A stretch of DNA of 64,000 bases from Candidatus Omnitrophota bacterium (lineage in GTDB: Bacteria; Omnitrophota; Gorgyraeia; JAHIPI01): assembly GCA_016783745.1 (NCBI GenBank), contig JADHVZ010000003.1, positions 7,112-71,111 of the forward strand, in the 5' to 3' direction. The notes under the pieces were generated by a model. It was not told the DNA's origin. It ran no database searches and was given only the letters and a program-made list of their open reading frames with translations. Shown one piece after another: positions 28,923 to 51,676 of this stretch. Numbering within the stretch: the stretch's first letter is position 1; every line of letters begins with the position of its first letter. Made by a program: the position numbers and the translations under genes.

Positions 28923-28999
28923 GCGCCTGTAGCTCAGATGGATAGAGCGACTGGCTTCGAACCAGTAGGCCGCAGGTTCGACCCCTGCCAGGCGCGCCA
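28923..28999 (+). tRNA. tRNA-Arg (anticodon TCG)
   Basis: Cloverleaf: acceptor GCGCCTG/CAGGCGC, anticodon loop CTTCGAA, T-loop TTCGACC, CCA encoded. Confidence 0.8.
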
Positions 29000-29093
29000 C
29001 TATATCGTTCGGGCTTCGGGGCAAAAAGTTGGACATTTCACATATGTTACATGTGTTCTCGAATCGTTTGTTATTTCTCGAGAGGCGCTTATA

Positions 29094-29197
29094 ATTCGTT
29101 TATCGTATATCGTTGATCGTTTATCGTTTTTGTTGATGAGCATCACAGGATTTGTACGATTGACGATAAACGATAGACGATTAACGATATGCGAACA
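29094..29197. repeat. Heptad-periodic long imperfect hairpin: five TATCGTT-type units, a 20-nt spacer, then five to six ACGATNN (reverse-complement) units
   Basis: Lies in the tRNA-Arg to tRNA-Leu spacer. The units have a 7-nt period on both arms. A further GCGGGC/GCCCGC hairpin sits at 29270-29290. Confidence 0.4.
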
Positions 29198-29333
29198 ACC
29201 AAGGAGCTGTAACGTTACGTTTCATTTTTTTGATTTTTTACGGAATTGCTTTATAGCGAGGAAGCGGGCAGGCCAGGAAAGCGGGCCAGCCCGCCGAAGT
29301 TTGTTTCGTAAGAATAGCAGGAGTAAAACGAAG

Positions 29334-29418
29334 GCGGGCGTGGCGGAACTGGCAGACGCGCATGGCTTAGGACCATGTGGAGAAATCCTTGGGGGTTCAA
29401 GTCCCTCCGCCCGCACCA
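29334..29418 (+). tRNA. tRNA-Leu (anticodon TAG), class II with long variable arm
   Basis: Acceptor GCGGGCG/CGCCCGC, anticodon loop CTTAGGA, long variable arm, T-loop TTCAAGT, CCA encoded. Confidence 0.85.
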
Positions 29419-29490
29419 GCTTATGCTATTTTTCTTGAAATATTACGCTTGTATGATAAAATAAACATCTATCTTTGATAAGTTAAAAGT

Positions 29491-29566
29491 GCCCGCATAG
29501 CTCAATTGGTAGAGCAAGACACTCTTAATGTCGAGGTTCTAGGTTCGATTCCTAGTGCGGGTACCA
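29491..29566 (+). tRNA. tRNA-Lys (anticodon CTT)
   Basis: Acceptor GCCCGCA/TGCGGGT (G1-U72 wobble), D-arm GCTCAATTGGTAGAGC, anticodon loop CTCTTAA, T-loop TTCGATT, CCA encoded. Confidence 0.75.
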
Positions 29567-29575
29567 GATATTAGT

Positions 29576-29670
29576 AGGTTTTAGGTGATAGGTAGTAGGT
29601 TATAGGTTTTTAGGAAAGAAATTTAAACCTACAACCTATAACCTACTACCTAACATATGATTTTTTAAAG
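29576..29670 (+). terminator. Hairpin built of TAGGTNN heptads (20-bp perfect stem) followed by a T6 run; terminator after tRNA-Lys
   Basis: taggtagtaggttataggtt (29589-29608) pairs perfectly with aacctataacctactaccta (29634-29653). The T-run is at 29661-29666. Confidence 0.5.
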
Positions 29671-29677
29671 CTATAAT

Positions 29678-29753
29678 GCGGGAGTAGCTCAGTTGGTAGA
29701 GCATCACGTTGCCAACGTGAATGTCGCCGGTTCGAGCCCGGTCTCCCGCTCCA
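29678..29753 (+). tRNA. tRNA-Gly (anticodon GCC)
   Basis: Acceptor GCGGGAG/CTCCCGC, anticodon loop TTGCCAA, T-loop TTCGAGC, CCA encoded. Confidence 0.85.
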
Positions 29754-50289: not shown

Positions 50290-50293
50290 AAGC

Positions 50294-50417
50294 CATAAGG
50301 GGACCATAAGGGGACCATAAGGGGACGTGTCACTTGTGGGACATACCTTTAGGTGTGTCCTCAAGTGACATGTCCCCTTACTATCCTAATGACCTGTCCC
50401 CTTCTCACACGTCCCCT
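50294..50417. repeat. Left direct-repeat element: 3x11-mer (cataaggggac), a 57-bp palindrome (50321-50377), and a GTCCCC micro-repeat tail
   Basis: The 62-bp block 50320-50381 is identical to 51469-51531. The tail at 50387-50417 matches 51570-51600. Confidence 0.6.
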
Positions 50418-50457
50418 AATGAATATGTTAGATATACAAAAGATAGTTTTTGCACTA

Positions 50458-50486
50458 TTGACAAATGCCACTTTGTCATATATACT
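50458..50486 (+). promoter_or_regulatory. Promoter: TTGACA, 17 nt spacer, TATACT
   Basis: Consensus hexamers with ideal spacing. Predicted transcription start ~50493, giving a ~225-nt leader before the PilZ gene. Confidence 0.45.
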
Positions 50487-50535
50487 TTAAATGGAAACAC
50501 AATATTAAGCGATAAGCAAACTGTTTTTTAACATA

Positions 50536-50640
50536 GTTTTTCGTCGAAAAAGGCAAACCATCTGAAAGGGTGGGGCTGCAAAGCCAAGTGCCTAACGCGC
50601 GAATCGCGCTAAGGTCGACTGGCCGCCGAAATGAAAAATT
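50536..50640 (+). ncRNA. Candidate class I c-di-GMP riboswitch (GEMM motif)
   Basis: aggcaaaccatctgaaagggtggggctgcaaagcc...gcctaa closely parallels the Vc2 aptamer core (GGCAAACCAUUCGAAAGAGUGGGACGCAAAGCC...GCCUAA). This includes the GAAA tetraloop hairpin (CCAUCU-GAAA-GGGUGG) and the CAAAGCC receptor region. Confidence 0.55.
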
Positions 50641-50655
50641 TTTTCATTTTTACAG

Positions 50656-50702
50656 CCCCGGATCTCAGATGGCAAAATGCCGTCGCAGATCCGGGGTTTT
50701 TT
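50656..50702 (+). terminator. Intrinsic terminator / expression platform: a 10-bp stem (ccccggatct / agatccgggg) plus T6
   Basis: Perfect GC-rich stem followed by tttttt. The RBS (gaaggag) and ATG of the PilZ gene lie ~15 nt downstream. Confidence 0.6.
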
Positions 50703-50720
50703 ATTTGAAGGAGCACAGCG

Positions 50721-51338
50721 ATGAACGGCAAAAAGAACAACGGTCGGAATAAAAAGATCAAGAAATGCAGAGTTATTGCCCTGCTAAAGAGGGATGAGGT
50801 GGAATTTCTTGATAAGCTGGCCATGGATTCTCTCTTTTCGACTGGCACAAAACTTTCAAGGGTTGAAATAATCAGCGCCCTTGTCAGTGTAGCGATGCTC
50901 TTAGAATTGTCAGCTAGCAATGTTAAGAGTAAAGAAGAGTTAGTTGATAGAGTGATGGATCTACTCAATCCTAATCCTGAGCGAAGACAGATTCCCCGCC
51001 TTAAGAAAAACCTGATGGTAAAATTCAGGAAAATAGAATCCCTACAGGGATATGAAAACGGCGCTACTATAGATGTAGGCATCGGAGGTTTTAAAGTGGA
51101 TGTCGCTTTTATGGGAAAGCCGCTAGCTGTTGATCAACCGATAGAGATCACGGTCAATGAACCACAAGACGAAAGCAAAACAGTAAAGGCGATAGGCCGT
51201 GTAGCCTGGATAAGGGAAAAGGGCGATGGCCATAGCCACGAAATAGGCATCATGCTTACATACATAAAAGCAAATGACAAAGACACCTTCCTTAAATATT
51301 TGACAGGCGATAGGGAAGCCAAAAGCGATGCACAGTAA
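50721..51338 (+). CDS. PilZ-domain protein (c-di-GMP receptor) with an N-terminal RHH-like/unknown domain
   Basis: RRQIPRLKKN (RxxxR) followed by DVGIGGFKV (D-x-S/G-x-x-G) and a beta-barrel-like C-terminus. Confidence 0.6.
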   Translation: MNGKKNNGRNKKIKKCRVIALLKRDEVEFLDKLAMDSLFSTGTKLSRVEIISALVSVAMLLELSASNVKSKEELVDRVMDLLNPNPERRQIPRLKKNLMVKFRKIESLQGYENGATIDVGIGGFKVDVAFMGKPLAVDQPIEITVNEPQDESKTVKAIGRVAWIREKGDGHSHEIGIMLTYIKANDKDTFLKYLTGDREAKSDAQ

Positions 51339-51425
51339 ATAAAGTTTTTTTTGCGGTAAGTTGACAACTGAATAGCCCAAAAGTGGGCACGCAGGCGAGG
51401 ATATAACGTCCTCTACCTCAGGCAT

Positions 51426-51459
51426 CGGCCCGGACTCACCATCCGGGCCGAATTTTTTT
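51426..51459 (+). terminator. Rho-independent terminator (cggcccgga / tccgggccg stem plus T7)
   Basis: 9-bp perfect stem, 7-nt loop, followed by ttttttt. Confidence 0.6.
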
Positions 51460-51468
51460 AAGTCACGC

Positions 51469-51600
51469 AGGGGACGTGTCACTTGTGGGACATACCTTTA
51501 GGTGTGTCCTCAAGTGACATGTCCCCTTACTACACCCCCTTTAAGGAGTGTCCCCTTTTGACACGTCCCCTAATGACACGTCCCCTTCTCACACGTCCCC
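51469..51600. repeat. Right direct-repeat element: the same 57-bp palindrome plus four GTCCCCT micro-repeats (contains a 38-bp insertion relative to the left copy)
   Basis: Identical 62-bp block to 50320-50381. gacacgtcccct-type units recur four times at ~13-bp spacing. Confidence 0.6.
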
Positions 51601-51676
51601 TCAGATCTAATATATTGACATAAATATTGACATAATATATAATATAAACTTAATTCGATAAACGGAGGGCAATAAT

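Follow-up and report, generated by a model that had tools for sequence, protein, structure and literature searches.

A predicted c-di-GMP-I riboswitch with a tetraloop-hairpin antiterminator upstream of a PilZ-fusion gene in Candidatus Omnitrophota

A stretch of 64,000 nucleotides (nt) from contig JADHVZ010000003.1 of Candidatus Omnitrophota bacterium, referred to here as the window, encodes a protein of 205 amino acids (aa) with a PilZ domain. The leader of its gene contains an aptamer of the cyclic di-GMP (c-di-GMP) riboswitch class I, also called GEMM-I. The order on one strand is promoter, aptamer, terminator, ribosome-binding site (RBS) and ATG, and the aptamer thus lies in the 5' leader together with an expression platform. 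An initial annotation of this region had proposed that a c-di-GMP-sensing RNA gates a c-di-GMP-binding protein here. The observation was confirmed, and its interpretation is supported with refinements: the OFF direction of the switch, the fusion of PilZ to another N-terminal domain, and a Ser to Gly replacement in a PilZ motif. The riboswitch itself is textbook material that standard Rfam annotation can find, and the value of the locus lies in what the riboswitch controls. To our knowledge, Omnitrophota have no cultured model organisms and their c-di-GMP receptors are largely unknown. The features of the unit are as follows; related loci are designated with L numbers.

50458–50486, + strand: sigma-70-type promoter, TTGACA-17-TATACT (11 of 12 consensus matches)
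50542–50630, + strand: c-di-GMP-I (GEMM-I) aptamer of the GNRA tetraloop plus receptor type (RF01051, calculated over the full model)
50558–50578, + strand: switching sequence, composed of the tetraloop hairpin CCAUCU-GAAA-GGGUGG and the junction GGCUG; 5' partner of the antiterminator
50631–50647, + strand: perfect A/U palindrome AUGAAAAAUUUUUUCAU followed by UUUUU; predicted hairpin right after the aptamer (sequence and folding)
50653–50672, + strand: 5' half of the terminator, CAGCCCCGGAUCUCAGAUGG, which can pair with 50572–50578 (7 bp) and 50558–50565 (8 bp) to form the antiterminator (duplex energy and folding)
50654–50702, + strand: intrinsic terminator with stem, inner hairpin and T6 tract at 50697–50702 (sequence and folding)
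50707–50713, + strand: RBS GAAGGAG, 7 nt before the ATG (read off the sequence)
50721–51338, + strand: 205-aa protein; residues ~17–82 are the Omnitrophota N-domain and residues 87–194 the PilZ domain (open reading frame, Pfam, profile and structure model)
51425–51451, + strand: second intrinsic terminator closing the monocistronic unit (10-bp stem with 8 G-C pairs, T7)

The covariance-model check gave a score of 67.5 bits for RF01051 against the gathering score of 35, with the e-value 4.5 × 10−11 for the whole 64-kb window, and the match covers model positions 1–87 of 87. It is the sole non-tRNA Rfam match at the gathering threshold in the 64 kb. The core resembling the Vibrio cholerae Vc2 aptamer had been placed at 50551–50600; the Vc2-type core was found there, while the true extent of the aptamer is wider, 50542–50630. 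The motif GGCAAACC at 50552–50559, the tetraloop hairpin at 50558–50573 with GAAA at 50564–50567, the motif GCAAAGCC at 50578–50585 and the CCUAA receptor can be read directly off the sequence. In the model alignment, AAAAAG-GC-AAA is followed by the CCAUCU-GAAA-GGGUGG hairpin, GC-AAAGCC, the receptor hairpin CCUAA...UAAGG and the 3' end GCCGAA. This is the architecture of type I GEMM aptamers, in which two hairpins meet at a junction, the first carrying the GNRA tetraloop and the second its receptor.

The canonical ligand-contact positions are occupied by G50552, A50580 and the CC at 50626/27, which are consensus positions in the model alignment and which we take to be the equivalents of G20, A47 and C92 in the Vc2 crystal structures. 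Absence of the G20 and C92 equivalents had been named as grounds for rejecting the riboswitch; they are present, and the contact columns are invariant in 19 related GNRA-type aptamers. Among these 19 relatives, 10 of the 21 predicted aptamer pairs show compensatory double changes. The window aptamer thus has every computable feature of RF01051. The arrangement had been judged unlikely to arise by chance, and a chance resemblance is excluded because of the covariance-model e-value, the fold of the leader (z-score −5.3) and the conservation upstream of orthologues. As judged from these sequence comparisons, the RNA is a genuine new member of the known class RF01051 and a predicted c-di-GMP-sensing riboswitch, and we infer that the aptamer binds c-di-GMP.

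The stem of the terminator is formed by CCCCGGATCT (50656–50665) and AGATCCGGGG (50687–50696). The 10 uninterrupted base pairs and the T6 tract noticed earlier at 50656–50702 are present, although the stem described as GC has only 7 G-C pairs. RNAfold lengthens the stem to 12 bp and adds an inner 7-bp hairpin, and the region 50630–50710 folds with −36.2 kcal/mol (z-score −7.35). A simple terminator scan missed this terminator because its loop is 21 nt long and is itself a hairpin. Intrinsic terminators were found in nearly all related leaders. The leader, first given as 225 nt, is ~228–234 nt long; the consensus promoter was found as described, and so were the RBS and the ATG (50721) just after the terminator. 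Translational control was considered and rejected: the predicted folds leave the RBS free of pairing, and a weak pairing between the leader and the start-codon region is not kept in L007, the closest relative.

The aptamer and the terminator are linked through an antiterminator that is mutually exclusive with both. Its two helices pair CCAUCUGA (50558–65) with UCAGAUGG (50665–72), and GGGGCUG (50572–78) with CAGCCCC (50653–59). Folding with and without the terminator had been proposed as a check, and it revealed these exclusive structures: when the 3' arm of the terminator is omitted, the minimum free energy (MFE) structure is the antiterminator, with −54.9 kcal/mol against −43.3 kcal/mol for the fold in which the aptamer is enforced. 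As the transcript is lengthened step by step, the tetraloop hairpin stays intact until the 3' end reaches 50660, the antiterminator is the MFE structure at ends 50673–50690, and the terminator together with the aptamer prevails from 50696. The duplex between the hairpin and the 5' half of the terminator has −28.4 kcal/mol (z-score −4.5; equalled in 0 of 300 dinucleotide shuffles), while a control segment of equal length taken from the aptamer shows a z-score of ~0 against shuffles.

Conservation of the antiterminator was judged by shuffle z-scores and a permutation test. The two-helix design reaches z < −1.5 in 19 of the 22 leaders of the GNRA-type subgroup, and the partners covary at hairpin columns 4 (U-A/C-G), 5 (C-G/U-A) and 6 (U-A/C-G). 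Random re-pairing of aptamers with terminators equals the cognate mean energy in only 12 of 5000 permutations. The A/U palindrome and the U-run between the aptamer and the terminator (50631–50652) are kept in L007 and L008, and similar elements are seen in L016 and L011; they may constitute a pause element. As a separate observation, many leaders of the GYRA type (L018, L015, L024, L026 and L036, often matching RF03167, c-di-GMP-I-GGC) have two tandem intrinsic terminators, the first of which is nearly always ACCCUAAAG...CUUUAGGGUUUUUU.

The protein downstream belongs to the PilZ proteins by sequence, as the initial annotation stated, and by predicted fold. Residues 87–194 match PF07238 with 34.8 bits against the cutoff of 22.5, covering profile positions 1–100 of 102. 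The RxxxR motif reads R89-Q-I-P-R93, and neither arginine varies among 21 family members. At the D/NxSxxG motif, the sequence elsewhere in the family is N-I-S-M-G-G or D-I-S-I-G-G, and G122 and G123 are invariant. The predicted structure of the protein contains the six- to eight-stranded beta-barrel characteristic of PilZ. The protein is a two-domain fusion of the N-domain and a predicted PilZ c-di-GMP receptor domain. PilZ-only versions lacking the N-domain are seen at L012 (3938–4366), L087 (1410–1817) and L089 (327–722); a riboswitch is kept upstream of the 131-aa protein of L089, and none was detected for L012 and L087. No GGDEF gene was found in the window by motif scan.

The N-terminal ~85 aa represent an uncharacterized family. 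The N-domain profile matches no fewer than 2,121 protein clusters (e-values ≤ 1 × 10−5). Nearly all of them come from Omnitrophota, and most are proteins of 80–100 aa that stand alone; all are annotated as "hypothetical" and none has a Pfam domain. Searches against Pfam, NCBIfam and PHROGs, and of PDB sequences with the profile, gave nothing solid for the N-domain: there was no PDB match at e-values ≤ 10, and only a weak match to DUF7833 was seen in 7 of 45 members. Similarity to the ribbon-helix-helix (RHH; CopG/Arc/MetJ) profiles was looked for, and no Pfam RHH match was obtained. The window contains only one member of the family.

Scanning one genome per species yielded 80 loci: 5 full-length orthologues, ~74 stand-alone proteins of 67–127 aa that match only residues ~14–93, and L012 with the PilZ half only. 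In Rfam scans, 70 of the 80 have an RF01051 or RF03167 aptamer immediately 5' of the gene and on its strand. The remaining 10 comprise 3 loci with less than 130 nt of upstream sequence, L012 without the N-domain, 4 with matches of 29–34 bits in the expected place, and 2 with nothing. Since the aptamer lies upstream of nearly the whole N-domain family, the riboswitch-PilZ pair is one branch of a wider pairing, and the riboswitch association belongs to the N-domain family overall rather than to PilZ specifically. In the PilZ branch, 13 extra loci were inspected, and aptamers at the gathering threshold were found in 9 of them, including L089; such aptamers lie upstream of 15 loci of the PilZ-fusion branch, namely the window, 13 fusion orthologues and the PilZ-only L089.

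The leaders of the N-domain family split into both known GEMM-I types, with a GNRA tetraloop and receptor or with a GYRA tetraloop and no receptor, a distinction set out in PMC12564702. Further GEMM-I aptamers were observed a few kb from a family gene in L009 (4771–4877), L016 (5519–5655), L063 (4069–4164, minus strand) and L089 (1011–1073), and Omnitrophota genomes appear to be rich in c-di-GMP-I riboswitches. About 20 loci, such as L014 (4310–4636 and 4646–7549, minus strand) and L016 (4725–5051), form one orthologous group of small genes with a conserved neighbourhood, in which small proteins with a signal peptide or transmembrane segment are encoded downstream on the same strand, a TPR protein convergently, and a ~1,100-aa protein upstream.

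It is probable that the leader contains a functional GEMM-I riboswitch of this Candidatus Omnitrophota bacterium, which controls a monocistronic gene by transcription attenuation and acts as a kinetic OFF switch. This model has good computational support. OFF is most likely the direction, because bound ligand would immobilize the very nucleotides on which the antiterminator depends. Transcription would start ~6–8 nt past the −10 element at 50486, and the aptamer (50542–50630) would be the first structure to fold. The polymerase is possibly paused by the A/U hairpin and the U-run. If no ligand is bound, the 5' half of the terminator (50653–50672) would, as it emerges, invade the tetraloop hairpin, starting at the junction GGGGCUG, and the resulting antiterminator of 7 + 8 bp would let the polymerase read through into the gene. 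With c-di-GMP, the hairpin and the junction would be locked in the ligand pocket, the terminator (50654–50702) would form and transcription would stop. At high c-di-GMP, less of the N-domain/PilZ protein would be made, and a single messenger would set the amount of the protein via the RNA and its activity via PilZ.

Several observations weigh against such a switch or against the receptor function of its product. At full length, the aptamer with the terminator outweighs the antiterminator (−70.5 against −57.8 kcal/mol), and read-through would therefore rest on kinetics. The complementarity does not reach z < −1.5 in 3 of the 22 leaders (L010, L013 and L089), and the GYRA-type leaders of the small paralogues gave no clear derivable switch. 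A GNRA hairpin is less common as a switching sequence than the usual 3' strand of P1. On the side of the protein, the D/NxSxxG motif reads D118-V-G-I-G-G123, where Gly replaces Ser, and the confidence of the structure model is modest (predicted local distance difference test score, pLDDT, 66.8).

The opposite direction, in which c-di-GMP favours read-through and the PilZ protein is made at high c-di-GMP, is unlikely. Both ON and OFF switches of GEMM-I are on record (review PMC12564702; Bc1 in PMC11218506), and since the terminator forms at equilibrium without ligand, termination could be a default that the ligand relieves. An ON switch would, however, require an overlap between the aptamer and the terminator, which does not exist here: the aptamer ends at 50630 and the terminator starts at 50654. 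Moreover, just one alternative pairing is strong, conserved and covarying, and it uses up nucleotides of the ligand-bound aptamer fold; the ligand should therefore disfavour the antiterminator and not the terminator. The strong promoter, the very stable terminator and the two tandem terminators of many related leaders would also suit an RNA whose main product is the short terminated leader, serving as a c-di-GMP sponge or a small RNA with gene control as a secondary role. An abundant GEMM-I transcript of Bdellovibrio is reportedly proposed as such a c-di-GMP reservoir. This explanation is quite improbable for the window, as about 75 of the 80 loci pair the aptamer with a single protein family, the aptamer being always directly upstream on the same strand, the RBS and the ATG follow within 20 nt after the terminator, and a conserved antiterminator is meaningful only where read-through matters.

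GEMM-I variants of altered specificity exist, and RF03167, a variant model, gives the highest score for many paralogous leaders. That the window aptamer senses another ligand, for instance a cyclic dinucleotide like 3'3'-cyclic GMP-AMP (cGAMP), which GEMM-Ib RNAs recognize, is very unlikely, because it scores best with RF01051, retains the equivalents of G20, A47 and C92, and precedes a protein bearing a c-di-GMP receptor domain. A at the position equivalent to 20 is the mark of the cGAMP-selective GEMM-Ib RNAs; the window has G at 50552. The reading in which the match arose by chance, or is a decayed relic without a part in regulation, is already effectively refuted by the e-value reported above and by the conservation of the aptamer, which shows compensatory changes among orthologues with protein identities of only 44–65%.

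Among characterized systems, the Vc2 riboswitch of Vibrio cholerae, upstream of tfoY, shares the Rfam family, the GAAA tetraloop docking in the receptor hairpin, the G20/A47/C92 contacts and the position in the 5' leader of a gene of the regulator type. In the window, the aptamer is instead coupled to a strong terminator and an antiterminator built from the tetraloop hairpin, and the host belongs to Omnitrophota, not Gammaproteobacteria. As far as we know, Vc2 has no downstream intrinsic terminator of such a kind. The combination of an aptamer with one or more rho-independent terminators acting by attenuation is shared with the GEMM-I switches of Firmicutes, such as Cd1 of C. difficile upstream of flgB and the set of C. 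difficile switches in PMC6200980. The Bc1 switch of B. thuringiensis has two terminators (PMC11218506), and the tandem terminators in many paralogous Omnitrophota leaders resemble it. The targets in Firmicutes are flagella, chemotaxis proteins and adhesins, whereas here the target is a c-di-GMP receptor or the N-domain family, and here the tetraloop hairpin is the switching sequence. RF03167 and the cGAMP-binding GEMM-Ib RNAs belong to the same clan (CL00126), and RF03167 is the best model for many leaders of small paralogues, whereas the window aptamer is a canonical RF01051 with G20. The locus thus departs from known systems in the host phylum, in switching through the tetraloop hairpin rather than P1, and in a target gene that encodes a c-di-GMP receptor fused to an uncharacterized domain.

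Proteins combining PilZ with a DNA-binding partner domain, such as MrkH, are a recognized category (bioRxiv 10.1101/2020.02.11.943704). In contrast to MrkH, the partner domain in the window protein has no sequence match in Pfam, NCBIfam or PDB, and DNA binding is putative at most. We know of no report of riboswitch control of MrkH. The antiterminator as described, the uncharacterized N-domain family with its riboswitch pairing, and the syntenic PilZ fusion with a palindromic promoter are new. Full-text literature searches gave no account of GEMM-I upstream of PilZ or of the Omnitrophota N-domain family; their coverage is incomplete, and an earlier description is possible.

The promoter of the PilZ-fusion gene is itself conserved. 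From ~−60 to −10 it is nearly invariant (AAAAAG-TAGTTTTT-cacTATTGACAnnTGTCACTTTGTCA..TATAcT) in 9 orthologues whose proteins are 50–65% identical; another promoter is conserved among the small paralogues. The −35 element and the spacer form the palindrome TGACA-AA-TG(C/T)CA, followed by CTTTGTCA, and the spacer TTGACAnnTGTCACTTTGTCA is kept among orthologues. The palindrome and its conservation suggest a protein-binding site overlapping the promoter. A further, tentative reading is that the N-domain proteins are a large family of small regulators of c-di-GMP output, possibly RHH-like DNA-binding proteins nearly always gated by GEMM-I, which captured PilZ in the branch of the window and thereby came under double control by RNA and allostery, perhaps with autoregulation via TGACA-nn-TGTCA and the ACGTCCC(C) arrays described below.

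Where an RNA that senses c-di-GMP gates a protein that binds it, a single messenger exerts control at two levels. Should the switch be OFF, the receptor would be made at low signal and its synthesis would stop at high signal, resulting in buffering or pulse-like behaviour. The riboswitch pairing flags the N-domain family, with its thousands of clusters, as a principal target of c-di-GMP signalling, and the PilZ fusion links the N-domain to c-di-GMP independently. If the regulator reading is true, these proteins would form a new c-di-GMP effector family and the principal route of c-di-GMP output in a phylum that is still poorly understood. The conserved and covarying antiterminator offers a directly testable mechanism.

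The PilZ fusion constitutes a syntenic sub-branch preceding lysS-lolCD. The gene order CHASE2-SpoIIE, SurA_N-like, HAMP-like, 200-aa protein, PilZ fusion, lysS and lolC is kept in L007, L094, L095, L096 and L098, and the unit is therefore ancestral here and not a recent insertion. Copies of a perfect 64-nt repeat on either side of the unit suggested a mobile cassette, an idea that was rejected on the synteny in these loci. The repeats and the conserved block flanking the unit are listed below.

50293–50325, no strand assigned: tandem array of three 11-nt units, CCATAAGGGGA, which continues into the palindrome (read off the sequence)
50320–50383, no strand assigned: 64-nt imperfect palindrome AGGGGACGTGTCACTTGTGGGACA...TGTCCTCAAGTGACATGTCCCCT, copy 1 (repeat search)
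50385–50417, + strand: two 15-nt-spaced units, GACCTGTCCCCT and CACACGTCCCCT (repeat search)
50426–50457, + strand: conserved block GTTAGATATACAAAAGATAGTTTTTGCACTA 5' of the promoter, an A-tract/T-tract resembling an UP element (alignment of 9 orthologous leaders)
51469–51601, no strand assigned: second repeat block with palindrome copy 2 (51469–51532) and 15-nt-spaced (T/C)GACACGTCCCCT units (51539–51601), just upstream of the lysS promoter

Copy 1 of the palindrome is a perfect 64-nt direct repeat of 51469–51532, and its internal arms of 22 nt are 91% complementary. The sequence GACAYGTCCCCT occurs in 9 copies in the window against 0.28 expected, all of them flanking the PilZ-fusion gene. 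The last ACGTCCCC unit lies 133 nt upstream of the aptamer, and a same-strand copy of ACGTCCC(C) is found ~110–145 nt upstream of the aptamer in the window, L007, L008, L011 and L094; the repeat is absent upstream of the promoter in the more distant orthologues L095–L098. A search of JGI (Joint Genome Institute) metagenome contigs with the 23-mer core of the repeat gave no match. The bracketing repeats are possibly operator arrays or elements like repetitive extragenic palindromes (REP).

Upstream of the L094 orthologue, a related element TAGGGACGTGCCACTTTGGGACAC is present as 49-nt inverted arms. At 2333–2716 of the same locus, the GGGACGTGCCAC palindrome arms are 286 nt apart instead of 19 nt, and a 145-aa open reading frame is called across them; the palindrome may have received an insertion, or the reading frame may be miscalled. 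The PilZ-lysS spacer of L007 (1097–1220) contains ~6 copies of GGTCACCA with an 8-nt period and then ~6 copies of the inverted TGGTGACT, which form 52-nt arms with 83% complementarity. Repeat arrays are kept at the PilZ-lysS spacer as a feature and not in sequence. The lysS promoter of the window (51615–51643) is a perfect match to TTGACA-17-TATAAT (12 of 12), with an overlapping second TTGACA 12 nt downstream (51627–51632). Elsewhere in the window, a cluster of four tRNA genes is located at 28923–29750 on the + strand.

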